32,000 bases of DNA from Candidatus Electrothrix yaqonensis (GTDB lineage Bacteria; Desulfobacterota; Desulfobulbia; Desulfobulbales; Desulfobulbaceae). The stretch is taken from assembly GCA_047651235.1 (NCBI GenBank), contig CP178758.1:2880001-2912000 (forward strand), in the 5' to 3' direction. The notes under the pieces are model-generated. The model ran no database searches and was not told the DNA's origin. It saw only the letters and a list, made by a program, of their open reading frames with translations. Positions 634 through 28,008 of the stretch are shown here, in pieces. Every line of letters begins with the position of its first letter. Position 1 is the stretch's first letter. The position numbers and the translations under genes were made by a program.

Positions 634-1781
634 CAGGGCTGTTCAATTCTATAAGAGCTTGTATTTTCAAGACGTATGCAGTAATTGATACAGAAAAACT
701 TTACACGAGGATTCTGCATGCTGTTTTTTTGCTGAACACAATCAAAGATCATCGACGCGGGCAGGGCCGGCGATATGAGCTTACGCATATTCTTCTGTTT
801 TCGATCATGGCGATCCTGAGCGGTTCGGATTCTTATCGCAAAATCCATCTGTTCGTTGATGCGCATCGTGAAAGGCTCAATGAATATTTCGGCCTGGACT
901 GGAAAAAAGCTCCTGCATATACAACGATCCGCACTGTCATTCTGAATACTTCCGGTTCGGAACTTGAGCGGATTTTCAGGGAGCACGGCAAAGCTCTCGC
1001 GGAAGAGGAACCGGACGGAGAATTTATTCATTGCGACGGCAAAACTCTCCGGGGAAGTTTCGATAACATGAAGGATATTAATCAGCTTCAGATATTGAGC
1101 GCTTTTGCCGGCGACCGCGCCGTCGTTCTCGGCCATGAAGAAATCAAGGAGAAAAGCAATGAAATCCCGGCGGCGCGGAAACTGATGAAAGAACTCGGTT
1201 TATCCGACCGCATTTTTACCTTCGACGCCCTTCATTGTCAGAAAAAAACTCTTCAGGCCGCCGCTGAAACGGGAAACGATGTGATTGCTCAGGTTAAAAA
1301 AAATCAGAGAACTCTCCTGAACGACTGTGAAAATATCGCGAATACGTCTGTTCCTGATGATGTTTTCACGGAGCCTTTTGAAAAAAAACGAAACCGTATA
1401 GAGAGTCGCAAAGTGGAAGTTTTTATCAGAATCGATCGATTTCGTCAGGTGTTTGATACAAAGAAGAAAAAATGGAAAAACACTCATGAGACATCCTTTT
1501 ATGTTTCAACAGCCGGTTCGGACGCTGAAGAAATATGTCAGGGAATCCTGGGGCATTGGCGGATCGAGAATGGAAATCATTATGTTCGGGATGTTTCTAT
1601 GGGCGAAGACCGCTCCCGAATTCGTTGCAATCCGCACATATTTGCGAAACTGAGAAGCTTTGCTCTCAATATTCTTCGTAAGAACAAGGTGAAGAATGTC
1701 AGCCGGGAGCTTTTCAGGAACTGTATGGATATAAATCGTCTGTTTGATTACGCCGGGATTTTCTAGAATTGAACAGCCCTG
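634..1781 (+). mobile_element. ISAs1-family insertion sequence (1148 bp), apparently complete
   Basis: Perfect 18-bp terminal inverted repeats: CAGGGCTGTTCAATTCTA (634-651) and TAGAATTGAACAGCCCTG (1764-1781). Flanked by a 10-bp direct repeat and carrying a single transposase ORF. As I recall, CAGGG termini and 8-10 bp duplications are the ISAs1-family hallmarks. Confidence 0.85.
729..1766 (+). CDS. ISAs1-family (H-repeat-associated type) DDE transposase
   Basis: 345-aa ORF. The N-terminus reads ..IKDHRRGQGRRYELTHILLFSIMAILSGSDSYRKIHLF.. (typical DPR-x-RH-L-ILxIA..CG..S motif region). The C-terminus reads ..GHWRIENGNHYVRDVSMGEDRSRIR.. (typical HW.IEN..H...DV.F.ED signature). The start is TTG at 729. 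An ATG at 718 lies in another frame across a T7 run. Confidence 0.85.
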   Translation: MLNTIKDHRRGQGRRYELTHILLFSIMAILSGSDSYRKIHLFVDAHRERLNEYFGLDWKKAPAYTTIRTVILNTSGSELERIFREHGKALAEEEPDGEFIHCDGKTLRGSFDNMKDINQLQILSAFAGDRAVVLGHEEIKEKSNEIPAARKLMKELGLSDRIFTFDALHCQKKTLQAAAETGNDVIAQVKKNQRTLLNDCENIANTSVPDDVFTEPFEKKRNRIESRKVEVFIRIDRFRQVFDTKKKKWKNTHETSFYVSTAGSDAEEICQGILGHWRIENGNHYVRDVSMGEDRSRIRCNPHIFAKLRSFALNILRKNKVKNVSRELFRNCMDINRLFDYAGIF

Positions 1782-2845: not shown

Positions 2846-3067
2846 ATGGAAACGTTACCTGCCCAAATGACAAAAGAGGAGCTGATTGAGACGATAGAGA
2901 ATATTGTTGAAAGAAAACTCGCTGAGTTTATCGAGAGAATCACAGAAAATGAACTCAGGCCTGAGGTGACGGACCGTCTGCTTGCTCAAAAAAAGCAGGT
3001 GGCCTCCGGGGAACGCGGACAGCTGCTTAACCGGATAGCTGAAGAGCTTGACCTGGTCGGCATATAA
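2846..3067 (+). CDS. Putative type II antitoxin (small acidic protein)
   Basis: 73-aa ORF preceded by gagaggaaatgag. Its stop overlaps the start of the downstream RelE/ParE-like ORF (TAATG, 1-nt overlap), which is classic TA coupling. No specific family recognised. Confidence 0.55.
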   Translation: METLPAQMTKEELIETIENIVERKLAEFIERITENELRPEVTDRLLAQKKQVASGERGQLLNRIAEELDLVGI

Positions 3068-3264
3068 TGTATGAAATTCGGATTCTGGATGAAGCTGTCC
3101 GTGATTTAAAACGCCTGGATAAATCTGTCGGACAAAGAATTGTTCAGAAGATATCGTGGGTTGCAGAAAATTTTGACAAGATCAACAAAGAACAGCTCTG
3201 CGGTGACCTTTCCGATTTCTACACAAGACCTCCTGCAGAACTGCCTGTTCTTCTCAGGCGGTGA
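3067..3264 (+). pseudogene. RelE/ParE-family toxin, 3'-truncated by IS insertion at about 3226
   Basis: MYEIRILDEAVRDLKRLDKSVGQRIVQKISWVAENFDKINKEQLCGDLSDFY matches the usual RelE/ParE N-terminal pattern (..A..DLKKLDK....RI..K...L.EN......L.G.L.g.Y). The expected continuation (.LRVGDYR.IY..) is replaced by IS-derived codons (TRPPAELPVLLRR*). Confidence 0.7.
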
Positions 3265-3293
3265 GGTTTTTCCCTTTTTCAAAATTTTCCGCT

Positions 3294-3938
3294 TCAGGCA
3301 GCTTTCTTCATTTTCCGTGCCGCAACCTTCATATTCACTATGCCGGATATGATATTTTTCTTTATATTATGGCCTTTAAGCCTGTTCCGGTATGTTTCCG
3401 ACATGATTTTAAATACCTTCACCTCTCTTATGACATGCTCAACTTTGATACGTTTTTTCGATAAATCAAGATTATATGCCTTCTGTTCGGCGGTCAGTTC
3501 ACCGTTCCGGGGCTTTTTAAAGGGAATTTCGGCGCGCCGGTCATATGCCGCGATTCCCTGATATCCGCTGTCGGCCTTCTTCGGAATACCGTGAAAACGC
3601 TCCCGCCCCTTCTGTTCCTTATATATCCTGAAATCATGAACACTTCCGGGATACGACGCCGAAACCGAAAAAATCCGTCCGTCGGGACCGGCGGTAAACT
3701 GCGTTCCGAGCGTGTGTTTTCCCTTCTTTCCGCTGTAATACTTCTTCTGTCCTTTCTTCGGGCGCTGAACCGGCTGTTCCGTCGCATCGATTATCAGGTA
3801 TTCCGCATCTTCCCGTGTGATTTCACGCTTTTTTTCAATATGAATCACCCGTACCGCGATTTTTTCCATCCGTTTCACTGCGCGCATCACCGTCGTCTCA
3901 TCGGAATCGAAGAAAAAACTGAGGAACTCATATGTCAC
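3294..3938 (-). CDS. IS5-family (DDE_Tnp_4-like) transposase catalytic part (orfB), -1 frame relative to orfA
   Basis: Candidate DDE residues sit in ..LIIDATEQPVQRP.., ..KKADSGYQGIA.. and ..RIKVEHVIREVKVFKIM... The frame is open upstream to about 3975 (..LIYYRCYVTYEFLSFFFDSDETTV), which continues the orfA sequence logically. This is either a programmed -1 frameshift or a 1-nt lesion. Confidence 0.7.
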   Translation of the reverse strand: MTYEFLSFFFDSDETTVMRAVKRMEKIAVRVIHIEKKREITREDAEYLIIDATEQPVQRPKKGQKKYYSGKKGKHTLGTQFTAGPDGRIFSVSASYPGSVHDFRIYKEQKGRERFHGIPKKADSGYQGIAAYDRRAEIPFKKPRNGELTAEQKAYNLDLSKKRIKVEHVIREVKVFKIMSETYRNRLKGHNIKKNIISGIVNMKVAARKMKKAA

Positions 3939-4162
3939 GTAACAACGGTAATAGATAAGCGAAGACTTCGCAGGAGCATGGCGAGAAGGTGGTTTTCAGC
4001 TCCTTCCAAGTTGTGCTTTCTCCCGCCCTTTTCAAAATTATCTCTCCGCTCTTCCCATAAAGGGCGGATCTTTTCCGTCATTCCGTTGAAAAGATCAATA
4101 TCGACACCGGTCAGACGGCGGAATGTTTCAGGGCGGCGGGAGAGTTTTTCGAATGTGAGCAT
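3935..4162 (-). CDS. IS5-family transposase, N-terminal HTH part (orfA)
   Basis: MLTFEKLSRRPETFRRLTGVDIDLFNGMTEKIRPLWEERR...HLLAMLL. GGAGG lies upstream of the ATG at 4162; an alternative upstream start exists at 4234. The ORF ends at a stop inside the overlap with the -1 frame that carries the DDE domain. Confidence 0.6.
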   Translation of the reverse strand: MLTFEKLSRRPETFRRLTGVDIDLFNGMTEKIRPLWEERRDNFEKGGRKHNLEGAENHLLAMLLRSLRLSITVVT

Positions 4163-4235
4163 GATTTTCAGACCTCCGGGGTTGATAATCGAAAAAGTGA
4201 CCGAAAAAATATCAGCATCCGCCGTTTCTGTCAAA

Positions 4236-5252
4236 TCACCAAGTTTTGCAGGAGGTCTGATAGACCTGCCATATCTGCAGATTGGTTAAAAGTGCCCACT
4301 TGATGCCTGAATACGCACCATACGAGGTTGCCTGAAATATCTGTTTATCACGCAATGCCATTCCGGCCCGTTTCACTTCGACAACAAGCACATCGTTATC
4401 GTCCACAGTCAGAATATAGTCAGCCTTTCGGCCCTGTATCTTTTGTTCAGCTTTAATTTCCTCCATTTTATACCCGAAGATATCCATAAACATCCTGTCC
4501 AGGATCATTCGCGTATTGCTTTCATTGATTTTCTGTTCAACTGCGGATTGAACATACGGGATGAATTGGACGATACCTTTTCGGAGAGCATGTGTTTTCT
4601 CCGTGAGAATCTGCTGCTGGGAACGTCTGGTTCGTTTTAATCCAGCAGCTATATTTTCTTCGGAAGATTCAGTTCCCTCTTCCTGGTCCGCATCGATATC
4701 GACACCAAACTGAGAAGCCAGAGCATCCAGTCCGCCATTGAATCCCTGCCCGACCGACCGAAACTTCCAACTATCCTGGTGCCTGTATATCTCGCCCAGC
4801 GTTAAGGCAATCTCCCGATTTGCATTTTTTACTTCATAACAGACAAGTTTCTGACCCTTAAACCCTTTTTCAAGGATTTTTATGAAGATCTGATCCACCA
4901 TGCTGAAATTCTGCTGCCGCTCAACAGCATGATATATCGTCAGGACAATCACGACCTTTTCTATTTCTTCGGAGAGTTTTGACAGGCAAATGTGAAACTC
5001 GCTGTCATGGCGCAGATTCTGCGGCGAGCAATCCAACAAGAGTGCGTTTTCCTGATCAGCGGTCTGATTGTAAAAGATAAAATCTCTGTCACTTCGGACT
5101 GTACCGTCCTTTTTCAGCAGAAAAGCACTGGCATCCAGCTCAAAATCATCGCTGCGGTTCTTTGTATGCCAGCCCAATGCGACCACGATATCATCTGTTT
5201 TGGAACCACTGCCGCTGATAATGCAGTTGCCTCCCCGCTCCAATGTATTCAT
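4236..5252 (-). CDS. Divergent TerD-domain protein fused to a C-terminal PD-(D/E)xK (HsdR-N / restriction-endonuclease-like) domain; the last codons derive from the IS
   Basis: The N-terminal ~185 aa has the TerD-family layout (..VVALGWHT..FELDASAFLLKKDGTVRSDRDFIFYNQ...EIYRHQDSWKFRSVGQGFNGGLDALASQFGVDI) but lacks the GDNLTG.G.GD.E calcium-site motif. An acidic and helical linker follows. Then ..RKADYILTVDDNDVLVVEVKRAGMALRDKQIFQATSYG..IKWALLTNLQIWQVY shows the D..(E)VK core plus the LTNG-like strand typical of HsdR N-terminal nuclease-fold domains. AGGAG RBS present. The final codons (the third base of the Gln codon, then TSCKTW and the stop) fall inside the IS terminal repeat (4239-4258). Confidence 0.75.
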   Translation of the reverse strand: MNTLERGGNCIISGSGSKTDDIVVALGWHTKNRSDDFELDASAFLLKKDGTVRSDRDFIFYNQTADQENALLLDCSPQNLRHDSEFHICLSKLSEEIEKVVIVLTIYHAVERQQNFSMVDQIFIKILEKGFKGQKLVCYEVKNANREIALTLGEIYRHQDSWKFRSVGQGFNGGLDALASQFGVDIDADQEEGTESSEENIAAGLKRTRRSQQQILTEKTHALRKGIVQFIPYVQSAVEQKINESNTRMILDRMFMDIFGYKMEEIKAEQKIQGRKADYILTVDDNDVLVVEVKRAGMALRDKQIFQATSYGAYSGIKWALLTNLQIWQVYQTSCKTW

Positions 5253-5326
5253 TTTTCTCTCCTGAAGACAGTATGTTTTCTCCCGCTGCGCAGATTTTTC
5301 CTGACATCCGATATCGCCGGACCAAA

Positions 5327-5965
5327 TCAGGTCACGATATTAATCTCCGGCGGCGGAGGCGGCAGTTCGTCCAATGTGGAGACATCCTTTTTACTCAGGT
5401 CAATTTTCTGGCTGCTTGAGCTGACGCTTGCGGAAATCCACTGGAAGAATTTTTTGATTGTCTCGGCATCAAGCGTGTCAAGCCGGACAATAACTTCAGT
5501 TATTTCCTTCAGCACATCAATTTTCGCTTTTGCCCCGGCAGCACAGGCTATTATCATGCCCGGTTTCAGTTCCTTGAGCTCCTGCAGAATGCTGCGCCAT
5601 GCATCTGTCGGGCCGCCGTCGGTCATGAGGAAAATAAGGGGCTTCCAGTCACCTTTCCGTTCCGGCGTGGTTTTGATAACCTCTTCACGGATTTTCTCTG
5701 CCGTCAGTTTTAACGCAGCTCCTAATGACGTGGTGCCCTGCGCCCGGATTTCCGGCGGCTGAAACGTGATCAGGTCGGTGAGCGGAACAATCTGTTGCGC
5801 ATCCGTATTAAAGGTGATGACGCTGAGAAAGGCTGTTTCCAGGGCATAGGGATCCTGGCGCAGGGTTGAGGCCAGAATCTGCACCCCGCTGTTTACAGCG
5901 TCAATCGGCTCGCCATGCATGGAGCCTGAGTTATCCAGCACAAGGTAGACAGGAAGGCGTCGCAT
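5327..5965 (-). CDS. terY: TerY-type von Willebrand factor A (vWA) domain protein
   Basis: MRRLPVYLVLDNSGSMHGEPI.. carries a MIDAS DxSxS motif, followed by ..GTTSLGAAL.. and ..LIFLMTDGGPTD... The size (212 aa) and layout match TerY. AAGGAGA RBS present. Confidence 0.8.
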   Translation of the reverse strand: MRRLPVYLVLDNSGSMHGEPIDAVNSGVQILASTLRQDPYALETAFLSVITFNTDAQQIVPLTDLITFQPPEIRAQGTTSLGAALKLTAEKIREEVIKTTPERKGDWKPLIFLMTDGGPTDAWRSILQELKELKPGMIIACAAGAKAKIDVLKEITEVIVRLDTLDAETIKKFFQWISASVSSSSQKIDLSKKDVSTLDELPPPPPEINIVT

Positions 5966-6054
5966 TGCATATTCTCCTTAAAAGAATAGGTAGATATAAC
6001 AAGTAAACAAGATAAAGCAGAAGGACAGACAGCTCCGCGTGGTGATAATATGGT

Positions 6055-6088
6055 AACAATGCCGCCGGGTCGGGGCAGCGGCATTGTT
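6055..6088 (-). other. Perfect 11-bp-stem hairpin in the terD-terY intercistronic gap
   Basis: AACAATGCCGC (6055-6065) and GCGGCATTGTT (6078-6088) flank a 12-nt loop. No U-tract follows on the transcribed (minus) strand, so it is not a canonical terminator. Confidence 0.4.
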
Positions 6089-6111
6089 AATCTGATTTGA
6101 TCCGGCCGGTG

Positions 6112-6699
6112 TTATCCGGCACTCAGCCCATAGGTGGCGCAGGCAGCTGCCAGCCCGCCGGAATATCCTTGGCCCACAGCAGTGAACCGCCATTCCCCGC
6201 CCTTTTTGTAGACCTCACCGAATACCATCGCTGTTTCCATGGAATAATCCTCGGTCAGGTCAAAGCGGACAATCTCCTGATTATCATCATCATTGACAAT
6301 GCAGATAAAGGCATTGCTCACCTGGCCGAAATTCTGTCCACGCCTGTCAGCGTCATGAATCGTGCAGACAGCGGCTATTTTTTCCACATCCGGGGCCTTA
6401 AGCTCCAGTTCATGCAGATCGACCTTGATAATTTCATCAGCTCCGCTACCGCCGCCGGTCAGGTTATCGCCCATATGTTCGATAGCCCCGTCTGCCCCGG
6501 TGAGGTTATTATAAAAAATAAAATCCTGATCACTTCTGGCCTTGCCAGCCGCATTCAGCAGAAAGACCGAGGCATCCAGATCAAAGTCCTCCCCGTCCGT
6601 GACCCGTTCATCCCATCCCAGGCCGATGGAAATTTTCGACAATCCGGGAGCTTCTTTGGATAACGAGATTCTGCCGCCTTTTTCCAGTGAAATGCCCAT
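6112..6699 (-). CDS. terD: TerD-family stress protein (canonical)
   Basis: MGISLEKGGRISLSKEAPGL..IGLGWD...DFDLDASVFLL..SDQDFIFYNN...GDNLTGGGSGADEII.V.L...FGEVYKKGGEWRFTAVGQGYSGGL. Both TerD calcium-site motifs are present. AGGAGG RBS present. Confidence 0.9.
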   Translation of the reverse strand: MGISLEKGGRISLSKEAPGLSKISIGLGWDERVTDGEDFDLDASVFLLNAAGKARSDQDFIFYNNLTGADGAIEHMGDNLTGGGSGADEIIKVDLHELELKAPDVEKIAAVCTIHDADRRGQNFGQVSNAFICIVNDDDNQEIVRFDLTEDYSMETAMVFGEVYKKGGEWRFTAVGQGYSGGLAAACATYGLSAG

Positions 6700-6757
6700 A
6701 ATGCAACCTCCTTACTTCTTTGTACGAATAATCTACTCTGCTTCGGTCAAAAACATC

Positions 6758-7342
6758 TTACAATGAGGGTTTGATAATCGGTAACAGCTTATCAAAGGTT
6801 CTGCCTGATCCCCAATCGCCAAGCGCTTTGAATTTCCAGTCACTGTTGTGGCGATAGAGCTTGGCGATAACAAGGCCCGTGTGTCCACCTCCCTGCACGC
6901 TGAGATCATACTTTGCAATAACATTACCCGTTTTATGATCCTTTAAGAGACAAAACGCATTGGGAATCCCGTCAAACGAGTCGCTGGAAAAGCTGTTGAC
7001 CGTGAAAACAAGGGTGGAAATATGTTTCGGAACAGCATTGAGCCGGACAACAATCTCTTCATTCGGATCGCCTGCTTGGCCCCCGCCTGTCAGGTCATCT
7101 CCGGTATGCAGGATCGAGCCGTCCTGACTTTTAAGCTGCCGAAACCAGACAGCATCCTGCAGGTTTTTATTTTCGTCAAACAGCAGACAGGAGGCATCCA
7201 GATCAACGTCCACCATTTTGGTGCGCCCCAGAAATCCTTTGGTCTTTTTCTGCCCCCAACCGAGTCCGAGGACAGCATCCGTTAAACTGGGAGCCTCTTT
7301 TGCGAGGGAAATGTTGGCGCCTTTTGTGAGCTTAATAGCCAT
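6758..7342 (-). CDS. terZ: TerZ-like TerD-family protein
   Basis: MAIKLTKGANISL...GLGWGQKKTKGFLGRTKMVDVDLDASCLLFD...AVWFRQLKSQDGSILHTGDDLTGGGQAGDPNEEI.V.L...FTVNSFSSDSFDGIPNAFC...GGHTGLVIAKLYRHNSDWKFKALGDWGSGRTF. The basic K-K-x-GF insertion and the WFR/FTVNSF/NAFC motifs are characteristic of TerZ. AAGGAG RBS present. Confidence 0.8.
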   Translation of the reverse strand: MAIKLTKGANISLAKEAPSLTDAVLGLGWGQKKTKGFLGRTKMVDVDLDASCLLFDENKNLQDAVWFRQLKSQDGSILHTGDDLTGGGQAGDPNEEIVVRLNAVPKHISTLVFTVNSFSSDSFDGIPNAFCLLKDHKTGNVIAKYDLSVQGGGHTGLVIAKLYRHNSDWKFKALGDWGSGRTFDKLLPIIKPSL

Positions 7343-7628
7343 GACAGCACTCCTTTTGGACTAAATTAAATAATTTCAAACTACTTAAAAGATAATTGTC
7401 TACATACTGAGACGGTATTTGTCAAGCATTATTGTCTGCTGCTGCTTTTTACGCCCTCTGTTTTAAACGCAGAAAAAAGCTGGCCAAGTTGATTGCTCAG
7501 ACAGCTGAAGCATTACCATCGGATATTATGCAGGATGCTGTGTTGTATTTTGCAGAGGGAAAAAAGGCAGCACGAGGTAAGAGAAAGACCGCAGACAAGA
7601 GGAGAAGGAGGAACGGATCAGAAAAGTA

Positions 7629-8324
7629 TCAGGGCTGCCAGCGGTACCCCATGCCATATTCAGAACGGATTGCTTTGAAGTCCGGGTCAATTTCATGAAA
7701 TTTATCCCGTATCCGGCGGATATGGGCTGCAATGGCATTGTTGGTGACAATAACATTGGCCGCCTCCATGAGCTGCTCATGATTTTTTACATGCCCGGGA
7801 CGTTTGGCCAGACAGAGCAGTATCCAGAATTCCGTCAGGGTAAGGCTGATCGGTGTTCCCTGCCAGTAGACTTCCTTGCGGTCTTCATCAATCCGCAGTT
7901 CCTGGTGTTCAATGATTTTGTTTTCCGTATTGCTGCTGCTGCGCAACGCCTCCACAGTGCGAAACATCGCGGAAATGCGGGCAGGAAGGAAGTCCAGAGT
8001 CGTGGTATCCTTGGTCAGGTAATCCCAGGCCCCGAGCCGTAGGCCGGAAACCCGGTCCAAGTCAGAGTTACGGGCAGTCAGAAAAATAATGGGGATAACC
8101 GGAGACAGGGTGCGCAGATGCTGGCAGAGGTCAAAGCCGCCCGCTATATCCTCGCCGAGCATGACATCCAGTATGGCGAGATCAGGCAGTGAGCGGTTAA
8201 AAGCGGCCATTGCTTCAGGTTTGCTGCTGTAGGCGGTTACCTCGTAGCCTTCGCGGTGCAGAGCCTGAGCATAGTTGGCCTGCAGTCGCGGGTCATCTTC
8301 AACAAGAGCAATGCGGTAGGTCAT
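7629..8324 (-). CDS. OmpR/PhoB-family response regulator (REC + winged helix); no kinase gene adjacent
   Basis: REC motifs: IALVEDD, PDLAILDVML, IIFLTAR, DYLTKD. The C-terminal trans_reg_C pattern reads ..ISLTLTEFWILLCLAKRPGHV...LME.........AIAAHIRRIRDKF......I.SEYGMGYRW. Confidence 0.9.
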   Translation of the reverse strand: MTYRIALVEDDPRLQANYAQALHREGYEVTAYSSKPEAMAAFNRSLPDLAILDVMLGEDIAGGFDLCQHLRTLSPVIPIIFLTARNSDLDRVSGLRLGAWDYLTKDTTTLDFLPARISAMFRTVEALRSSSNTENKIIEHQELRIDEDRKEVYWQGTPISLTLTEFWILLCLAKRPGHVKNHEQLMEAANVIVTNNAIAAHIRRIRDKFHEIDPDFKAIRSEYGMGYRWQP

Positions 8325-14429: not shown

Positions 14430-15691
14430 GTACGCTGTTTCCCTGTGTTGCCTGTCTGCAGATGGAGATTCAGCCGGGTGATCTGGAACTCAATATCAGT
14501 CGACTGCAGAACCTGCTGGCCGGTGCGGACTGTCCGCCGGATACCCTGGTTGTCCTGCCTGAATTCTGGGCAACCGGCTTTGACTATCCTCATCTTGCCG
14601 AGCTTGCAGAGCACACTCCGGAACTTCTGGGGATACTGCGCCGTGCCGCTGCACAAGGTGGCATCTGGCTTGCCGGTTCTCTGCCGGAAAAGGGAGACGA
14701 GGGCAGGTGCTTCAATACCCTGTTTGTGGTCGGGCCGGAGGGCATTGCAGGAAAATACCGGAAGCACCATCTGTTCGGCCTGTGGCGGGAGGATCAGTAT
14801 CTGGAGGCCGGACAGGGACCATCGCCTGTGGATACGCCGTTCGGGCCTCTGGCTGCGCTGGTCTGCTATGATCTCCGATTTCCGGAAACCAGCTGGAATC
14901 AGGCTTTTTCAGGCAGCAGACTGATTGTGGTCTCGGCCCAATGGCCCCTGAGCCGCTCTGATCAATGGCGGATTCTGCTCCAGGCAAGGGCTGTGGAAAA
15001 TCAGGCTTTTGTGGCAGCCTGTAACGGCTGCGGCTTTGTGGCGGCAGGGGAACTTGGCGGGCATTCCATGATTGTTGATCCTTTCGGTCAGGTACTGGAA
15101 GAGGCCGGGAAAGGGGTCGGCGTCATCAAAGCAGACCTTGCGGAGATTTCGGTGGATGTTGCCCGTTCCCGCTTCTGCCCGGTCGGCGAACGCCCCTGGT
15201 CCGGGCAGGACAGCAGTAAAATTGTCCGACTGGAGATCCTGCAGGAACGGCTACGCCGCATCCGGCAGCAGAACAGCAGGATCGTCTTCACTAACGGCTG
15301 TTTTGATCTGCTTCATGCCGGCCATGTAACGTATCTTGAAAAGGCACGCCGGTACGGCGACTGCCTTGTGGTCGGCCTGAATTCCGACAGATCCGTCCGG
15401 ACCCTCAAGGGGCCGTCCAGACCGGTGAACAGCGGGGCGGATCGGGCCAGGGTGCTTGCTGCCCTAGGTTGTGTTGATTTTATTGTTTTCTTTGATGAGA
15501 AGACACCGTTCAGGCTGATTACAACCCTGCTGCCGGATGTCCTGGTCAAGGGGGCAGACTGGCCTGAGGAAGAGATTGTCGGGGCGGCTGATGTCCGGGC
15601 AGCCGGCGGGGAGATACAACGGATTCCCTTTGACCGTGCGGTCTCCACCACGGGAATCATCAATAAAATCCTTTCCTCTTCCTCCGGCTGA
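14426..15691 (+). CDS. Fusion protein: carbon-nitrogen hydrolase (nitrilase superfamily) + RfaE domain II-like cytidylyltransferase (heptose-1-phosphate adenylyltransferase type)
   Basis: The N-terminal half carries the Glu-Lys-Cys triad contexts VLPEFWATGF, YRKHHLF and ALVCYDLRFPE. The C-terminal half reads IVFTNGCFDLLHAGHVTYLEKARRYGDCLVVGLNSDRSVRTLKGPSRPV....R..VLAAL..VD.IV.FDE.TP..LI..L.PDVLVKGADW, which is the HldE/RfaE domain II pattern with an HxGH motif. Confidence 0.8.
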   Translation: MSTLFPCVACLQMEIQPGDLELNISRLQNLLAGADCPPDTLVVLPEFWATGFDYPHLAELAEHTPELLGILRRAAAQGGIWLAGSLPEKGDEGRCFNTLFVVGPEGIAGKYRKHHLFGLWREDQYLEAGQGPSPVDTPFGPLAALVCYDLRFPETSWNQAFSGSRLIVVSAQWPLSRSDQWRILLQARAVENQAFVAACNGCGFVAAGELGGHSMIVDPFGQVLEEAGKGVGVIKADLAEISVDVARSRFCPVGERPWSGQDSSKIVRLEILQERLRRIRQQNSRIVFTNGCFDLLHAGHVTYLEKARRYGDCLVVGLNSDRSVRTLKGPSRPVNSGADRARVLAALGCVDFIVFFDEKTPFRLITTLLPDVLVKGADWPEEEIVGAADVRAAGGEIQRIPFDRAVSTTGIINKILSSSSG

Positions 15692-17122: not shown

Positions 17123-18928
17123 ATGTCTGATATATCAAAGATTCTTATCGTGGATGATGACCTGACCTTTGTCAGGGAATTGTGCGATGTCCTGTCGGCA
17201 TACAGTCAGTATGACGTACTGACTGCCACCAACCGGGGCGACGAGGTGTTTGCTCTGAAAAAAGAGAAGATAGCGGTTCTTGTTGTCGATTTGAGCGCCG
17301 GTAATCTCGATGTTCTTTTTCTGCTTTCTCTTGTCTCCACCTCGTACCGGCATGTCCAGTGTATTGTTATGCTCCGGGAGGAGCATCCTTCCGTGAAAGC
17401 AGTCCAGGACTGTTTTCTGAAAGATTCCATCTTTCTGTATCTTGTCAAACCGTCCAATTTGGAGACCATCGGCTGTGCCGTGCTCGAAGCGCTGCAGCGG
17501 CTGGATGAGAACGATTATACGCCCGGAATTTCTGCCGGAAAGATTGTTTCGTTTCTTGAGGCCCAGGAAAAGAGCTGTCAGGTTGTGGTCAAGTACGGCA
17601 GTAAAAAAGAGGGGATTCTTCATTTTGACCGCGGCATGCTGATCAATGCGTCCTGCGGCAATAAGCAGAGCGTGGAGGCGGCTCTGGAAATTTTTGAATG
17701 GCCACCTCTCGCTTTTACTGTTGAAGAGGCGGATAGGCAGGTTGAGCAGCGTCTGACCCTGAAAGATCTGAGAACCGTCCGGGTGACCTCGCGACTGAAA
17801 AGAGAGGCTGCCGACAAGCAGGCAGTCGGCAACGGCGGCAGTGTCTGCACTGTGAATGCTGCCGGGCAGAACATCAATCTGTTTATTGTCGATGACTCCA
17901 GAATGATGCGCAAGGTTATCGCCAATATTTTCAAGGATCATCAGGTAGTGAAGGTGGTCGGCGAGGCCGAGAACGGAGAAGAGGCCCTGCAGATCATTCC
18001 CCAGCTCAAGCCGGACGTGGTGACCCTTGATGTGGAAATGCCAGTCATGGACGGGCTGACCACCATCAAACACCTGATGATTCAGGCACCCACGCCCACA
18101 GTGATGCTCAGCGCCATGACCCTGGAAGGAGCTGATGTCACCTTTAATGCCCTCAAATACGGGGCTGTTGATTTTGTGGCCAAACCGTCCAACACCGGGG
18201 AGGTTGATCTGCAGGAACAGACCAGGGAAATTGAAAGAAAGGTGCGTCTGGCTGCAGAGGTCGAGATTGAGGCGGTCCGGTATGTCAGGGCGGTGAGTCA
18301 GGAAAAAAAAGACGCTCATGCCTCGGCCCTTGCCGGAAAAAAATGTGAACAGCTTGTTGCGGTCGGGGCGGCGGAAGGAGGCTACGGCGCGCTGCTCAAG
18401 CTGCTTCCTCACCTGTCGGCCCAGGTTCCGGCGGCCTACTTTGTCATGATGTACACTCCGTCCCGGCATCTGGATTCTTTTGTCCGCTATATGAATAAAT
18501 TGTCGCCCCTGATGATCCGGCGGGCCGAGCATAATGCGGTGGTGGAGGCCGGGGTCTGCTATTTTGCTTCGGGCGAGGAATACCTTACTGTGCATGAAGG
18601 TGACGGCGGCCTGGTGCTGCATGTTTCCAAAGCGCCCTTTGCCACCCGCAGAGGCTCGGTGGATATGCTGTTTTTTTCCGTGGCCGAGCGGGTGCGGGAA
18701 AAATCCCTGGCTGTTATTCTCTCCGGTATGGGCGAGGACGGCTCTGAAGGCATGGAGGAAATTCTCCGGGTCGGCGGTACCGGCATTGCCCAGGACCCGG
18801 CTGTGAGTCTGTACCGGGAGATGCCGGTGGCGGTATCTTCCCGTTGCCCCGAAGTAAAAGTTCTTTCCGATGCGGAGATTCCGAAAAAGATTGAAGAGGC
18901 GCTTGCCGGGCACACAGCTGCCTCGTAA
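17123..18928 (+). CDS. REC - DUF4388 (PATAN-like) - REC - CheB-like methylesterase-fold protein with a degenerate catalytic triad
   Basis: REC1: ILIVDDD..VLVVDLS..LVKPS. Then ..KSCQVVVKYGSKKEGILHFDRGMLINASCGNKQSVEAALEIFEWPPLAFTVEE (DUF4388 pattern G.i.f..G.l..A......G.eAl..i..W..g.F). REC2: LFIVDDSRMMRK..PDVVTLDVEMPVMDG..MLSA..DFVAKPS. In the CheB-fold domain, GASTGG is GAAEGG (Ser to Ala) and QHMP is MYTP (His to Tyr), while GMGEDG keeps the Asp. Confidence 0.85.
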   Translation: MSDISKILIVDDDLTFVRELCDVLSAYSQYDVLTATNRGDEVFALKKEKIAVLVVDLSAGNLDVLFLLSLVSTSYRHVQCIVMLREEHPSVKAVQDCFLKDSIFLYLVKPSNLETIGCAVLEALQRLDENDYTPGISAGKIVSFLEAQEKSCQVVVKYGSKKEGILHFDRGMLINASCGNKQSVEAALEIFEWPPLAFTVEEADRQVEQRLTLKDLRTVRVTSRLKREAADKQAVGNGGSVCTVNAAGQNINLFIVDDSRMMRKVIANIFKDHQVVKVVGEAENGEEALQIIPQLKPDVVTLDVEMPVMDGLTTIKHLMIQAPTPTVMLSAMTLEGADVTFNALKYGAVDFVAKPSNTGEVDLQEQTREIERKVRLAAEVEIEAVRYVRAVSQEKKDAHASALAGKKCEQLVAVGAAEGGYGALLKLLPHLSAQVPAAYFVMMYTPSRHLDSFVRYMNKLSPLMIRRAEHNAVVEAGVCYFASGEEYLTVHEGDGGLVLHVSKAPFATRRGSVDMLFFSVAERVREKSLAVILSGMGEDGSEGMEEILRVGGTGIAQDPAVSLYREMPVAVSSRCPEVKVLSDAEIPKKIEEALAGHTAAS

Positions 18929-19127
18929 GAAAAAAAACGACCGGCTGCGGTATTCGTTGTAATTAAATTAGACTGGAGCTATTTTATAGGGTAAAATTAG
19001 GAGATAAATATAAAAAAGCAGAAGGAGGTTGCAACATGTTTTTAGTGCGGCGGAAGCGGGCGCCGGGCGGGGCTGTGTGGGCCGACCCGACGGGACAAGG
19101 GAATTCCAGACAGGAGGAAAGAACAGT

Positions 19128-22100
19128 ATGAGAGGCCAAACAGGACAATTATCCAGAAAAGGATGGGGACTTCGGGCCAAGCTGGTTATGCTGCTGCTGC
19201 TCGTTGGTCTTATCCCCTTTCTGGCGAACGCGATTATTGACCAGCTGGCATCTGCCGACGCTCTGACGGCTCGTGCTCAAGCCCAGCTTGAGTCTATTCG
19301 TGAGATTAAGAAAAACCAGATCGCCTCTTATCTTGAGGAGCGTGCCGGTGATACTGTGGTGCTGGCCAGGATTATTCAGTCGCTCCGCCGGGAGGGTATT
19401 GCCAAGCTGAAAGCGATTGAGGGAACAAAAGTTTCGGCCATTCGGCGTTATTTCGGTAAACGTGTAGCCGATATTGCGGTGTCGGCCAAGAACCTCACCG
19501 CTGTCGCTGCCATCCAGGAGATGGAAGAAGCCTTTGAGGAGGAGGGAAAAAGGGTCGGCGGCAGTCTGTGGAACGGCTACAAGGAGAAGTACAGTGCCTG
19601 GTTCTCCGGATTCCGGGATGAGCACGGGTATTATGACGTATTTCTGATTGCGCAGGACGGTGATGTTGTCTACACCGTTGCCGAAGAAGCCGATCTGGGG
19701 CAGAATCTGGTCTCCGGTTCTCTGCGGGATTCAGGTCTGGGCAGGCTTTTCTCCAAGGTTATGAAGGAAGGAAAGGCTGTTATAGAGGACTATTCCTCCT
19801 ACGCCCCCTCAGGGGGAGAGCAAGCCTCCTTTATCGGAGCACCGGTTCAGGATGGCGGCAGAACAGTCGGCGTCCTGGCGATGCAGCTGTCTACAGAGGA
19901 AGTTAATCGTATTGTTCAGGAGCGTGAGGGGTTGACCAGTACCTTTGAGTCCTTTCTCATCGGTGGCGATGCGGGAAATATTAGCCTCCACAGCGACCGT
20001 ACAGTCAAGGAAGGTAAAATCGGCGACGCATATTCCGGCCCTGATGCTCAGGCTGCGCTGGATGGCAAGACGGGTATCCTCTATAAAGTCGGCCCGACTG
20101 GCCTCTTTGAGCTGTCTTCCTATACACCGGTTGACGTTGCCGGACTGCACTGGGGTATGCTGACCACAGGTGCGCTGACCGAAGTTGTTGTGCCCAAAGC
20201 GGAAGGAGAGGCGGACGACCTGCTGAAACAGTATCAGAAAGCCTACGGGTACTATGATATTTTTCTGTTTGATCCGACCGGCTACTGTTTTTATTCTGCA
20301 GAGAAGGAGGCTGATTACCATACCAATCTTCTCACCGGCAAGTACAGCGACACCAACCTCGGAACGGCGGTCAAAAAAGTGGTGGGCACCAGAAGAACGT
20401 CCATTGTTGATTATCAACTTTATGCGCCGTCCGGCGCACCGGCCTCTTTTCTGGCTTCTCCGGTTATAGAGGAAGGTGAACTCGTGGCAGTCGTGGGTGT
20501 GCAGATTGCAGACACGGATATTCAGGAGATTCTGGACGAAACAACCGGTCTGGGCAATACCGGTGAGACCTTTCTGGTCGGCTTCAGTGATTTTGTTCCC
20601 CGTTCCAATTCCAGGAAGGGTCTCAAACTCCTCCAGGACCAGGCTCTGAAAACCGAGCTGATTGATGCAACGTCGGAGACAGGTCAGGCGCAGATCAGGC
20701 GCGCTCCTGACTACGTCGGCGACGAGATTTTCGGTGCAGCGGTTCCGCTGGATTTGAAAAAGAAGCTGGGTGCCGACTTTGACTGGATTCTGATCGCCAA
20801 GATTGACACCAAGGAAGCTCTGGAGGCTGTTACCACAATCCGTAACCGTGCTATCGCTCTGGGTTTTGCGTTCATTGTCGTTGTTGCAGCTATTGCCTGG
20901 TTCGTCGGCGGGGCTTTTGCCCGGCCTATTGTTGCCATTGCCGAAGTTGTCCGTCAGGTTGCTGCGGAACGTGATCTGACGCTGGATGTTCCTGTGGCCT
21001 CCAAAGACGAAGTAGGACAAATGGCAGGCGAGTTCAACAACATGCTGCAAGAGCTGAACCAGGCGTTTACTGAGGTACAGACTGTATCCCAGGCTGTTGC
21101 CAAAAACGCCGAGGACGTGGCCGGACGTGCTTCCGCCAACAGGGATCGTGCTGAGGTCGAGGCCCGTCAGACCGAGAAAACCAGAGAGCTGCTGGAGACA
21201 ATGGGTGAGACAGCCGGTCAGGTTGCCGAGGGTGCTTCAGCCCAGCAGGCAAGTGCTCAGAAATCCCAGCAGACCATTGCCGAGCTCCTGAAATCTATGG
21301 ACACCGTGAGCGACGCTGTTATCAAACAGTCCGAAGAAGCTGAGACCGCTACTGACCGTGTGGGTGCGATGGGTGAAACCGGTGCTCTAGTTGTGGCCAC
21401 CTCTGCCGAGCAGGGTAAAACAGTTATGCAGGTGACCGCATCCATGAACGAGATCACTGCATCCGTACAGAACATGGGGCAGGCAGTAGAAGCAGCCACC
21501 TCCCAGGGTCAGGAAGCCCTGCAGGCTGCCAGTGACGGTAGGGCTGCTGTGGAAAACACGGTTGCCGGTATGCGCGCCATTGCAGAATCCTCCGGACAGA
21601 TCTCTGAAATCATTGGCGTTATTACAGAAATCGCCGAGCAGACCAACCTGCTTGCTCTGAACGCCGCCATTGAGGCTGCCCGTGCCGGTGCGCATGGTAA
21701 GGGTTTTGCGGTTGTTGCTGACGAGGTCGGTAAACTGGCCCAGCGTTCCTCTGAAGCTGCCAAGGAGATTACCCAGCTGATCAAGGATTCTACTTCCAAC
21801 GTTGAGGCAGGAACCAAGTATTCCGAAGAGCTGCAGAGCGCTCTGGCCAAGATTGATGCCAGCGGTCGTAACAACATGCGCTCCATTGAGGAGATCGCCT
21901 CTGTTGCCCAGGTCGTTGAAGCGGATATCCAGAATGTCCAGACCCTGGTTCAGGAACTGAACAAACTGGCCGAAGAAATCTCCAAGATGGCCGGTGAGCA
22001 GGGTGCCCGTCGTCAGGCTGCTGAGACAGCGCTGAGCTCCATGGTCCAGCAGTCCCAGATCATCAGTGCGCTGGTATCTGAAGCAAGTGCAGGTTCCAGC

Positions 22101-22325
22101 TCCATCGACACTGAGATGCGCGACATTGTGCAGCGTACTGACAGGCTGAACGAACTGGTTGCCTCCCAGAGGGAGCGTTCCCAGAATGCGGTTCAGATTG
22201 CTCAGCAATCCCAGGAGGGTGCCCAGAAAACAGTACAGGGAGCCGGTGTGGTCGTGTCCATTACCGACGATCTGCGGTCTGCTTCCGACAGGCTGCGTGA
22301 ACAGGTTGAGCAGTTCAAGCTGTAA
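19128..22325 (+). CDS. Methyl-accepting chemotaxis protein with a duplicated Cache-like periplasmic sensor, HAMP and a very long signalling domain
   Basis: The start was chosen at the ATG at 19128 (AGGAGGA RBS); the ORF track extends to 19029. TM1 is ..[19 protein letters not shown]. Two ~200-aa paralogous modules are present ([33 protein letters not shown].. and [32 protein letters not shown]..). TM2 and HAMP follow (P-x-x-x-[14 protein letters not shown]). The hairpin tip has the [38 protein letters not shown] signature. Confidence 0.9.
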
Positions 22326-22358
22326 GCCGGACCTGTTCTGTATTAGGCTTGTATAGCT

Positions 22359-22405
22359 GCATCACTCCGCGTGCTATTCGGTGTGTCCGGTGCGCGGGGT
22401 GATGC
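22359..22405 (+). terminator. Hairpin 34 nt after the MCP stop codon (possible weak terminator or attenuator)
   Basis: 13-bp stem GCATCACTCCGCG / CGCGGGGTGATGC (one G:U pair) with a 21-nt loop. It is followed by a T-rich but interrupted tract, GTTTCTGTCTGCTGTTCTG. Confidence 0.3.
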
Positions 22406-22522
22406 GTTTCTGTCTGCTGTTCTGCGGAAAACAGGTAAACAGCAGAAAACAAAGTACTCTGAAAAAAAACGGCTGACAGGGTCAGCCGGGTAACTGTATA
22501 TGCGGAATAAGGGGGAAAATTC

Positions 22523-23044
22523 ATGGCAGAGACATTTGCGGCTGACCGGGCCGAAAGAATAGCGGACCAGGATGAAAAAGAACAGCTTATGCAGCTGGTC
22601 GGCTTCACGATCGGCAGGGAACACTTCGGGGTTGATATTCTGATGGTCCAGGAGATTATCCGTTCCGCGCCGATTACTTCTGTGCCGAATTCACCGGATT
22701 TCATTGAAGGGGTTATCAATCTGCGCGGCAATATTATTCCGGTGATTGAGCTGAGAAAACGGTTGAACCTGTACAGGAAGGATATTGCGGCAAAGGATGC
22801 CTGGATACTGATTCTTGATATTAACAGCCGGGTGACCGGGTTTATTGTCGATTCCGTTACCAGGGTTCTGAAAATTATTGAAAGTACGATTGAACCGCCG
22901 CCTGAAGTCGTGGTGGCCGGACTGGGCAATCAGTACATCAAGGGTGTGTGCGATATCGGAGAAAATCTGCTGATTCTGCTTGACTTCAACCGTATTCTTC
23001 TTGCAGACGAGTTACAGCAGCTTAAGGCAATAAATGGGGAATAA
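22523..23044 (+). CDS. cheW: CheW coupling protein
   Basis: ..QLVGFTIGREHFGVDILMVQEIIRSAPITSVPNSPDFIEGVINLRGNIIPVIELRKRL... shows the canonical CheW-domain pattern. 173 aa. Confidence 0.9.
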   Translation: MAETFAADRAERIADQDEKEQLMQLVGFTIGREHFGVDILMVQEIIRSAPITSVPNSPDFIEGVINLRGNIIPVIELRKRLNLYRKDIAAKDAWILILDINSRVTGFIVDSVTRVLKIIESTIEPPPEVVVAGLGNQYIKGVCDIGENLLILLDFNRILLADELQQLKAINGE

Positions 23045-23048
23045 TCAG

Positions 23049-23414
23049 ATGAGTAAGCGAGTTCTGATAGTCGATGATTCATCCATGATGCGCAAGATGA
23101 TCGCAAAGCTGCTGCAGCCGCCGGGTCATATTGTTGTCGGCCAGGCAAAAAATGGCATTGAGGCCATTGAAATGTATAAATCGCTGCAGCCCGATATTGT
23201 CACCATGGATATCACCATGCGCGAGATGGACGGACTTGCCGCAGCAAAGGAAATTTTACAGTATGACAGCTCGGCGCATATCATTTTTCTTTCCAATCTT
23301 GATGAGGATATCTATCGGGAAGAGGTGGAGCGTCTCGGTGCCATGGGGTTTGCCAGCAAGCATAAGGCGAGAGAAATCCTTGAGATGATAGAACCGTCTG
23401 AAGGTGGTGCGTAA
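23049..23414 (+). CDS. cheY: CheY-like single-domain response regulator
   Basis: MSKRVLIVDDSSMMRKMI...PDIVTMDITMREMDG...IIFLSN...GFASKHK. The acidic pocket, the phospho-acceptor Asp and Ser/Lys positions are present. An alternative start at 23034 overlaps the cheW stop. Confidence 0.85.
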   Translation: MSKRVLIVDDSSMMRKMIAKLLQPPGHIVVGQAKNGIEAIEMYKSLQPDIVTMDITMREMDGLAAAKEILQYDSSAHIIFLSNLDEDIYREEVERLGAMGFASKHKAREILEMIEPSEGGA

Positions 23415-23611
23415 CTTCCGGCTTTTGTGCACTATGAACGGCTTGTGTCCTTTGCCGTTTTTCGGAAAATATCCGGCCTGATGTCTGCAGCGGTCTTAGG
23501 GGTTGCTGTGCGGCTGCGTATGAGGGTGCCGGAAAAATTTTGCGGACAGTTGACCGGGAGGCGGTTTCGGCGGGGCACCATAAAAGATCATCTTAAAACG
23601 GGTTTTCGCCT

Positions 23612-24244
23612 ATGTCTACTTTATTTCAGGTAGCAGATGATGTAAGTCTGAAGACCAGGACACAATTTTTCTTTATGCTTACAATCTTGCTAACCGCGAT
23701 TGCGGCAGCCGGTCTTCTGTATGAATATGTCAGTCGCGGCCCGGAGGCGGGAAGTATTGTTGTCAGTTCCGTCATGCTTGTCATCATCTTTTTGCTGGGA
23801 GTGCAGATTGCCGCCATGATGTATTGGATGCGCAGCATTATGCAGCCGCTGGCTGAGGTGGGAGCAGCGACACGGTTGATGGCGGACGGGCATCTTGAAA
23901 CCTTTAATCAGATCAGACAGGCAGATGAAATCGGTCTGCTGGGCGAGAATATTAATGATCTGGCGGTCAATATGCAGGAGGTGCTCCTTTTTATCTGGAA
24001 CCACAGCCAGATGAGTCGTGAGTTGCTGGAGCATATAGCCGGAGAACTGAACGTTACCCTGGAAGACGTTGCCCCGGAGCCGGAACAGCTCTCTGCTGGA
24101 ATACAGAAGTATCTTCTTGAAATGTACCGGAATAATGAGGATCTCAGATCCATCGTGCTGTCATTCAGTTATTTTGAAATCAAGCTGGAAAATGAAAAAA
24201 TGGTTTCTGATTATGAACAGGAAACCGGAGTGAGCGTTTCGTGA
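23612..24244 (+). CDS. Small membrane protein: 2 TM helices + HAMP domain, no recognisable sensor or output domain
   Basis: TM1 is FFFMLTILLTAIAAAGLLYEYV and TM2 is IVVSSVMLVIIFLLGVQIAAMMYWM, with only about 8 residues between them. HAMP-like region: RSIMQPLAEVGAATRLMADGHLETFNQIRQADEIGLLGENINDLAVNMQEVL. An uncharacterised ~90-aa acidic tail follows. Confidence 0.65.
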   Translation: MSTLFQVADDVSLKTRTQFFFMLTILLTAIAAAGLLYEYVSRGPEAGSIVVSSVMLVIIFLLGVQIAAMMYWMRSIMQPLAEVGAATRLMADGHLETFNQIRQADEIGLLGENINDLAVNMQEVLLFIWNHSQMSRELLEHIAGELNVTLEDVAPEPEQLSAGIQKYLLEMYRNNEDLRSIVLSFSYFEIKLENEKMVSDYEQETGVSVS

Positions 24245-24434
24245 ACCTCGTGAACCGGACAGGATGGCATTTCCGCATCGGATTTCAATATGCTCCGGTG
24301 CCCCTGCAGGCAATTATAGGAAAGATATACAGAAAAGAACCTGATCAGGTGAATCAGGTGAGCGGATTGCAGCGGAAACTGATTCCGGAACCTTTAACCA
24401 AATAAACGGGCAGACTCTTGATAAGGTGGCAAAT

Positions 24435-27899: not shown

Positions 27900-28008
27900 G
27901 GAGGTAACCGAGACGGGCACACAGCAGATAATTCAGGGAGTTGGACGGCCAGGGCAGCGGAGTCATAAAATAACGTGGAGATTCCTGGGGGAGGGGGGAA
28001 GCTGCGGC

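Follow-up and report, generated by a model that had tools for sequence, protein, structure and literature searches.

The stretch of DNA analysed here (the window) comprises 32,000 nucleotides of the genome of Candidatus Electrothrix yaqonensis (contig CP178758.1, positions 2,880,001 to 2,912,000) and carries, on its minus strand, a gene for a two-module protein in which a TerD domain is joined to a putative nuclease of the PD-(D/E)xK type, the gene having been broken by an insertion sequence (IS) of the IS5 family. This overall picture is held with a probability of about 0.6. The anatomy of the fusion and its truncation are near-certain, and the further view that the intact family functions as a signal-gated DNase effector is a tentative one, to which somewhat less than even odds are given. 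The parts of the fusion open reading frame (ORF) are located as follows, P0002 being a full-length relative of the window protein.

4236-5252, minus strand: truncated TerD-nuclease fusion ORF of 338 amino acids (ORF list, Pfam and NCBI match).
4707-5246, minus strand: TerD beta-sandwich domain, residues 3-182 (Pfam PF02342; model of P0002 compared with 3ibz and 2kxt).
4998-5063, minus strand: degenerate, shortened loop, residues 64-85, in place of the calcium (Ca2+) motif GDNxTGxGxGxDE (alignments).
4626-4697, minus strand: acidic linker, predicted to be disordered, about residues 186-209 (low model confidence in P0002).
4260-4625, minus strand: retained part of the PD-(D/E)xK (HSDR_N_2) module, residues 210-331, ending inside the beta-strand 327-335.

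Both domain assignments are well beyond chance. Pfam places TerD (PF02342) at residues 3-182 with an E-value of 1.9e-49 (168 bits against a cutoff of 25.3) and HSDR_N_2 (PF13588) at residues 244-333 with an E-value of 2.8e-7 (31 bits against a cutoff of 25), and the sub-threshold matches of the ORF, HSDR_N and SfsA in Pfam and Cas4 in NCBIfam, all belong to restriction-endonuclease-fold families. The translation contains the landmarks LGW, ELDASAFLL, RSDRDFIFYN, WKFRSVGQGFNGGL, ADY...VVEVKR and LLTNLQIWQVY, among them every one that a first-pass annotation of this DNA had quoted.

A homology search with the window protein returned at least 240 relatives; the family counts given below use the best 120 of them, and the residue-conservation counts and the model of P0002 are based on an alignment of 109 full-length homologues. 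Nearly all of the best 120 relatives are 415-450 amino acids long and carry both the TerD and the nuclease Pfam domains, with HSDR_N_2 scoring 25-41 bits in seven homologues. Among the relatives listed, the closest is P0002 (431 amino acids, 88% identity to the window protein), and it was indeed possible, as the first-pass annotation had proposed, to define the natural C-terminus from such IS-free orthologues. The family occurs widely in sulfur-oxidising and methane-oxidising Gammaproteobacteria and in relatives of the cable bacteria, and full-length identity amounts to 40-60% across Chromatiales, Methylococcales and Desulfobacterota. The NCBI entry identical to the window protein is named 'TerD family protein' (Candidatus Electrothrix sp. 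YB6, a cable bacterium; contig of 3.74 Mb), and homologues from JGI bear the name 'stress response protein SCP2/predicted type IV restriction endonuclease'. The TerD-nuclease architecture is already catalogued by automated annotation, and the window copy is a degraded member of an uncharacterised family.

The structure of the intact protein was predicted with AlphaFold2 for full-length P0002 and, separately, for its C-terminal half (residues 208-431). The full model had a mean predicted local distance difference test score (pLDDT) of 90.5 and a predicted template modelling score (pTM) of 0.61; the values for the C-terminal half were 93 and 0.82, respectively. In the full model a beta-sandwich (1-185) is followed by an acidic disordered stretch (188-209, pLDDT below 50), three helices (212-258), a nuclease core made of three strands (266-293), a helix (302-315) and three further strands (319-348), and finally a conserved six-helix bundle of about 75 residues (355-427). 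Thus, of the acidic and helical linker described in the first-pass annotation, the acidic disordered part at about 188-209 was retained, and the helices after it were reassigned to the nuclease module, because stand-alone homologues of this module contain them. When the TerD half was compared with the PDB by Foldseek, it matched 9a6r_B (2e-19), 3ibz (6e-17) and 2kxt (2e-15), with target-normalised TM-scores of 0.84 for 3ibz and 0.76 for 2kxt. The best match, 9a6r_B, is the SCP2 chain in an integrative model of the GlpD-SCP2 complex, which by analogy offers a precedent for TerD-fold protein-docking modules.

In the window, the gene for this protein runs into the IS, the relevant features being the following.

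3226-4258, minus strand: IS5-family insertion sequence of 1033 bp with 17-nt terminal inverted repeats (DDE_Tnp_4, E 2e-28; NCBIfam transpos_IS5_4).
4236-4259, minus strand: IS-encoded tail QTSCKTW and stop codon, in the terminal inverted repeat.
3067-3264, plus strand: short ORF whose frame runs into the far end of the IS, with a non-IS part at 3067-3225.

The window protein is colinear with P0002 up to residue 331 (...LTNLQIWQVY), the similarity ends at 331-336, and P0002 continues for about 100 residues past the point where the window frame reads QTSCKTW and stops. The junction of gene and IS is located between 4259 and 4258, in codon 332. The replacement of the natural 3' end by the IS, which the first-pass annotation had already described, is therefore confirmed, but its expression 'slightly truncated' is far too mild, as about 98 residues (23% of the protein) and the downstream half of the operon are gone. 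The missing residues comprise part of strand 5 (327-335), all of strand 6 and the helical bundle, and their coding sequence was not found by tblastn anywhere in the 32-kb window.

The element looks complete. The arms of its terminal inverted repeat (3226-3242 and 4242-4258) are 94% complementary, and its transposase is encoded in two ORFs that overlap (3935-4234 and 3294-3938), which points to either a programmed frameshift or a frameshift mutation. There is no obvious target-site duplication at the flanks of the element (...CTACACA versus GATAGAC...), and there is no second copy of it within the 32-kb window. Nucleotide similarity to the syntenic loci of two relatives, L001 and L003, is limited to window positions 4251-7354. 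The short plus-strand ORF meets the IS end at 3225/3226, so the sequence beyond the IS does not represent the rest of the fusion gene. The two sequences that the IS interrupts are thus unrelated to each other, which points to a deletion or to a rearrangement mediated by the IS rather than to a simple insertion: the far side is unrelated, and the downstream operon genes are absent from the window.

Several minor features surround the IS. The short ORF at 3067-3264 belongs to a pair of tandem small ORFs (2846-3264, plus strand; 73 and 65 amino acids, 1-nt overlap) with a toxin-antitoxin-like layout; its likeness to the N-terminus of a RelE/ParE-type toxin is visual only, with no match in Pfam (E<=1) or by plasmid tblastn. 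A second, different transposase (729-1766, plus strand, 345 amino acids, DDE_Tnp_1_assoc and DDE_Tnp_1) is located past the IS5 element, at a distance of about 1.5 kb from it. The initial 4.3 kb of the window are rich in IS and degraded in appearance, with many short overlapping ORFs.

The part of the nuclease module retained in the window includes all residues of catalytic type, the codons of which are found at the following positions.

4521-4523, minus strand: E244.
4419-4421, minus strand: D278.
4377-4379, minus strand: E292.
4371-4373, minus strand: K294.
4332-4334, minus strand: Q307.
4320-4322, minus strand: Y311.
Residues 321-324, minus strand: LLTN of the nuclease module.

Across the full-length homologues, E244 (in the NESNTR helix), D278 (in ADY), Q307, Y311 and the pair T323-N324 are invariant (109/109 each), and E292 and K294 are each conserved in 108 of 109, so that the D..E.K residues, on whose presence in orthologues the first-pass assignment of a nuclease depended, are indeed kept there. 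Together these residues make up the pattern E...D...ExK...QxxxY, which we take to be the signature of HsdR/RecB-type nucleases, and at the level of sequence the near-invariance of the metal-ligand, lysine and QxxxY residues argues for catalysis. In the model of the C-terminal half the core has the order alpha-beta-beta-beta-alpha-beta, like that of solved nuclease domains. The best Foldseek match of this half in the PDB was BpuSI (type IIG; E 5.8e-4, probability 1.0), and further matches included DrdV, EcoR124I HsdR, the Vibrio HsdR fragment 3h1t, other restriction-endonuclease-fold proteins and Cas4. When a profile of the C-terminal half was compared with PDB sequences, the HsdR match 3h1t was non-significant (E 1.8), with ADY, EAK, QxxxY and TN in register. 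With HSDR_N_2 above its cutoff, structural matches to BpuSI, DrdV and HsdR, and no non-nuclease fold assigned, the HsdR-N-like PD-(D/E)xK fold suggested by the first-pass annotation was upheld, and the second module is predicted to be a PD-(D/E)xK nuclease of the HsdR-N / type IIG class with a complete catalytic set.

The TerD half resembles Klebsiella TerD (2KXT) and Streptomyces TerD (3IBZ) in its beta-sandwich and in the motifs DxDxS, DFIFYN and WKFRAVGQGY.GGL, and its identity to canonical TerD/TerE is 35-38% over about 180 residues (phmmer E 5e-37). Unlike canonical TerD, which is a free protein of about 190 amino acids, the fusion has a nuclease attached and is devoid of the GDN(R/L)TG(E/A)GDGDDE loop. 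At this position the alignment gives GDNLTGGGSGADE for the neighbouring TerD (6112-6699) and LLLDCSPQNLRHDSEF for the fusion protein, in agreement with the difference pointed out in the first-pass annotation, and the loop of the fusion is about 8-11 residues shorter. Both neighbouring TerD genes keep the Ca2+ loop, the second (6758-7342) in the form GDDLTGGGQAGDPNEE.

PMC8779313, citing the structure paper on Klebsiella TerD, assigns residues 40, 41, 42, 78, 79 and 89 of Klebsiella TerD as ligands of the first calcium ion (Ca1), and residues 29, 82, 84 and 88 as ligands of the second (Ca2). Mapped via the alignment with 2kxt, residues 78-89 of the Klebsiella protein correspond to the loop GDNRTGEGDGDDE, and in the fusion D78 is changed to S, N79 to P and E89 to S, and residues 80-82 are deleted. 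The missing loop supplies the Ca1 ligands 78, 79 and 89 as well as the Ca2 ligands 82, 84 and 88; with six of the ten ligands lost, the canonical dual Ca2+ site could not form. Still present in the TerD half of the fusion are E/DxD (window residues 38-40), the Trp, DFIFYN and possibly one Asp. The earlier claim that the second calcium site was lost is therefore correct as to the loss but too narrow as to its extent, since the loop carries ligands of both sites, and both lose most of their ligands.

The loss is, moreover, not peculiar to this copy: in a motif search the Ca2+ motif was not found in about 119 of the best 120 homologues, the single match being probably elsewhere in the sequence, and the motif was likewise absent from those distant TerD-nuclease fusions, found by profile search, that were checked. 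Decay of the broken window copy was considered as the cause of the loss and rejected, because the loss is family-wide. Judged by its sequence, the fusion is a member of the TerD fold that departs from Klebsiella-type TerD precisely at the Ca2+ sites.

The nuclease module shares its fold and the D...ExK...QxxxY residues with the N-terminal domains of HsdR and the corresponding domains of type IIG/IIL enzymes (EcoR124I HsdR, 3H1T, BpuSI 3S1S, DrdV), the Pfam families HSDR_N and HSDR_N_2 being group 48 of Steczkiewicz et al. 2012 (PMC3424549). Unlike these enzymes, the fusion contains no superfamily 2 (SF2) helicase/translocase, methyltransferase or specificity domains and has a helical bundle of about 75 residues of its own. 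No helicase domains were detected by Pfam in the full-length homologues, and neither hsdM nor hsdS was found in the window or in any examined locus; lacking motor domains and hsdM/hsdS partners, the fusion is thus not an HsdR subunit. It is also similar to stand-alone HsdR-N proteins (COG2810/COG4748-type, 'predicted type IV restriction endonuclease'), which match the whole 224-position profile described below with E-values down to 1e-40 and have the same catalytic motifs; these proteins are without TerD, and some of them carry a zinc ribbon, HARE-HTH or DUF5655.

The distribution of the module was followed with a profile of the C-terminal half (A3, 224 positions), searched against 1.84 billion cluster representatives, which gave 3280 matches at E<=1e-3, 753 at E<=1e-10 and 131 at E<=1e-30. 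Many of these matches are stand-alone proteins of 215-290 amino acids that cover approximately positions 10-222 of the profile and consist of the nuclease and the helical bundle only. Others are TerD fusions of about 420 amino acids, and further fusion partners are an N-terminal zinc ribbon (P0126), an N-terminal HARE-HTH (P0222), which is a DNA-binding domain of restriction systems, and a C-terminal DUF5655 (P0206, P0212, P0257). On Leptospira and Arthrobacter plasmids the stand-alone copies, named 'type I restriction enzyme HsdR N-terminal domain-containing protein' in RefSeq, adjoin toxin-antitoxin and IS genes. Since the module occurs alone or with varied partners, TerD would be one of several interchangeable accessory domains on a common effector. 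Every homologue covering the module, the stand-alone forms included, keeps strands 5-6 and the helical bundle. A catalytic-motif regular expression matched 64 of 140 distant stand-alone representatives, a pattern too crude to interpret, and this count was not used. No Pfam model exists for the helical bundle, which has the appearance of a conserved domain not yet described.

Three genes directly upstream of the fusion gene form, together with it, what remains of an operon in the window.

5327-5965, minus strand: small vWA (TerY-like) gene with a DxSxS metal-ion-dependent adhesion site (MIDAS) motif, directly upstream of the fusion gene and in the same position in the relatives L001, L003 and L089.
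6112-6699, minus strand: TerD paralogue of the canonical kind, its Ca2+ loop GDNLTGGGSGADE intact (Pfam E 1.3e-76).
6758-7342, minus strand: further TerD paralogue that has diverged more, its loop reading GDDLTGGGQAGDPNEE (Pfam E 9e-45).

In the closest relatives the order of genes is TerD, TerD, small vWA, fusion, (AIM24), small vWA, TerY (vWA and TerY_C) and PP2C. This operon was found in L001 (P0003, 63% identity), L003 (P0002, 88%) and L089 (P0005, 60%). In L089 a Ser/Thr kinase comes after PP2C, separated from it by an insertion at 14449-15604 that holds an HNH endonuclease ORF and a transposase gene of the IS200 type (Y1_Tnp), which indicates that the operon attracts mobile elements in more than one genome. 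The AIM24-family gene is located right after the fusion gene in L001 (11300-12097) and L089 (9291-10073), but L003, the closest relative, lacks it there. In L090 a TerD gene directly precedes the fusion gene. A pattern scan of genome contigs, dominated by the generic TerD motif DFIFYN, yielded the family loci L009-L011; in one of these, L011 of Thiocystis minor, the gene right after the fusion gene encodes an orthologue of the L089 kinase (phmmer E 1e-226), and this conservation suggests a functional or horizontally transferred fusion-kinase pair. The kinase consists of about 500 amino acids (1087-2586 in L011; 15631-17133, after TerY-PP2C, in L089, an Electrothrix-like metagenome contig).

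TerY, PP2C and a kinase are known as the 'TerY-P triad' (PMC11090510), and as in Ter/TerY-P systems, known for stress response and predicted to act against phages, the fusion gene of L001, L003 and L089 is in an operon with TerD, vWA, TerY and PP2C, to which L089 adds the kinase. Unlike such a triad, the window keeps only TerD, TerD, vWA and the truncated fusion gene; AIM24, the downstream vWA, TerY with TerY_C, PP2C and the Ser/Thr kinase are absent from it. No TerC, TerB or TelA was found in the window either, and its remainder consists of ordinary chromosomal genes. A gene for an OmpR-type response regulator (7629-8324, minus strand) is located directly upstream of the TerD-TerD-vWA-fusion string, in a position that is not conserved in L001 and L089.

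We propose that in the intact family the nuclease-plus-helical module may act as a portable effector cleaving nucleic acid, most likely DNA, as its nearest folds and the HARE-HTH partner suggest. The Ca-free TerD domain might then be a regulatory or docking domain that localises or controls the nuclease. In the Electrothrix-type operon it probably links the nuclease both with the Ca2+-competent TerD paralogues and with the TerY-PP2C-kinase switch, which might be achieved by TerD-TerD contact, by docking on vWA proteins or by binding of a small ligand, and DNA cleavage would be licensed only under stress or infection, via a Ca2+/phosphorylation switch. A link of TerD and TerY-P with restriction-endonuclease-fold DNases has reportedly been drawn before, by Anantharaman, Iyer and Aravind, and nothing specific on a characterised TerD-nuclease fusion was found in the literature searched. 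The fusion of a Ca-independent TerD domain to an effector fits the view of the Aravind group, according to which TerD binds ligands and may be a sensor of nucleoside-like signals (PMC7159879, PMC7824862). A more specific form of the proposal, in which the TerD domain without its Ca loop is a dedicated sensor that allosterically licenses the PD-(D/E)xK nuclease, the family supplying the long-missing arm by which Ter-type stress or anti-phage systems cleave DNA, seems unlikely; the input of such a sensor might be a nucleoside-like Ter metabolite, a phospho-signal from TerY-PP2C-kinase or a Ca2+-loaded TerD partner.

A number of observations weigh against the signal-gated effector. In Thiocystis violascens, Desulfamplus, Methylovulum and several metagenome-assembled genomes the fusion gene is solitary among housekeeping genes, and most gammaproteobacterial and Desulfamplus genomes have no Ter/TerY-P neighbours next to it, so coupling to TerY-P cannot be a general requirement. 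A search of PADLOC-DB v2 (E<=0.01) gave no match for P0002, for the vWA and TerD proteins of the window, or for AIM24, TerY and PP2C of L001. With a pTM of 0.61 the full model leaves the geometry between the domains undefined, which makes gating of the nuclease by TerD purely inferential, and the Foldseek E-values of the nuclease half are modest (5.8e-4 at best). The truncated protein, moreover, keeps the alpha-beta-beta-beta-alpha-beta catalytic core, which makes residual activity possible. Finally, no experimental work on any member of the TerD-nuclease family was found in the literature searched.

Some of these observations would be explained if the intact family were a stand-alone housekeeping or stress nuclease, for example one of DNA repair or turnover, that is independent of Ter/TerY-P, and if the operon in the relatives of Electrothrix were a lineage-specific recruitment. 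The conserved-looking neighbourhoods of the solitary gene, the 40-60% identity over the full length across distant lineages and the lack of PADLOC matches are all consistent with such a role. However, the fusion of the same module to HARE-HTH and DUF5655 and its presence near toxin-antitoxin and IS genes on plasmids are typical of conflict systems, and four independent loci (L001, L003, L089 and L090) have the fusion gene in an operon with genes for TerD or TerY-P, which makes the housekeeping role rather unlikely.

The solitary fusion gene of Desulfamplus (Desulfobacterota) and that of Thiocystis violascens (Gammaproteobacteria) are each followed immediately by a gene for a prokaryotic diacylglycerol kinase (L002 11497-11889; L004 11418-11786; L005 2034-2402), and Mla lipid-transport genes are located nearby in L002 and L006. 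These neighbours may indicate a link to membranes or lipids, or they may be a coincidence.

As to the window copy, all its catalytic residues are kept, but the protein is predicted to be most likely inactive; this copy is a relic without operon partners and serves as a pointer to the family. An improbable alternative is that the 338-amino-acid product retains nuclease function, or has become a deregulated nuclease that might be toxic. E244, D278, E292, K294, Q307 and Y311 are present and the core is kept up to strand 4, and the ORF is intact, has a start codon, occupies its operon position behind TerD-TerD-vWA and is annotated by NCBI as a normal protein. On the other hand, the protein is cut off midway through a beta-strand, the presence of strands 5-6 and the bundle in every homologue implies that they are needed, and the downstream partner genes are gone.

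Less probable still is a PD-(D/E)xK-like module that is not a DNase but acts on RNA or is a non-catalytic binder of nucleic acid or protein: some PD-(D/E)xK domains are RNases or inactive, with such cases in TerY-P-linked systems discussed in the CoCoNuT paper (PMC11090510), and no recognisable DNA-binding domain is present besides the uncharacterised helical bundle, but this is opposed by the near-perfect conservation of the metal-ligand, lysine and QxxxY residues, by the closest folds, which belong to the DNA endonuclease domains of restriction enzymes of types I, IIG and IIL, and by the HARE-HTH fusion partner.

A natural fusion of TerD with a nuclease whose catalytic set is intact would make the sensing or binding by TerD, of whatever kind, accessible to an assay. 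To our knowledge, it has for decades been unclear what the TerD domain does, and if the sensor interpretation is true, a simple two-domain protein would be at hand in which the function of this domain could be read directly as nuclease activity. The family also indicates that the TerD fold can work without its calcium sites. The intact family is thus a good experimental handle on TerD function, for which the window copy itself is an unsuitable subject.

Far from the fusion gene, the window contains a large chemotaxis cluster (17123-29046, plus strand) with two CheB-like methylesterase response regulators, of which one has DUF4388 and a second receiver domain in addition, a methyl-accepting chemotaxis protein of 1098 amino acids (GAF, dCache, HAMP) and a CheA-CheW fusion of 1157 amino acids.

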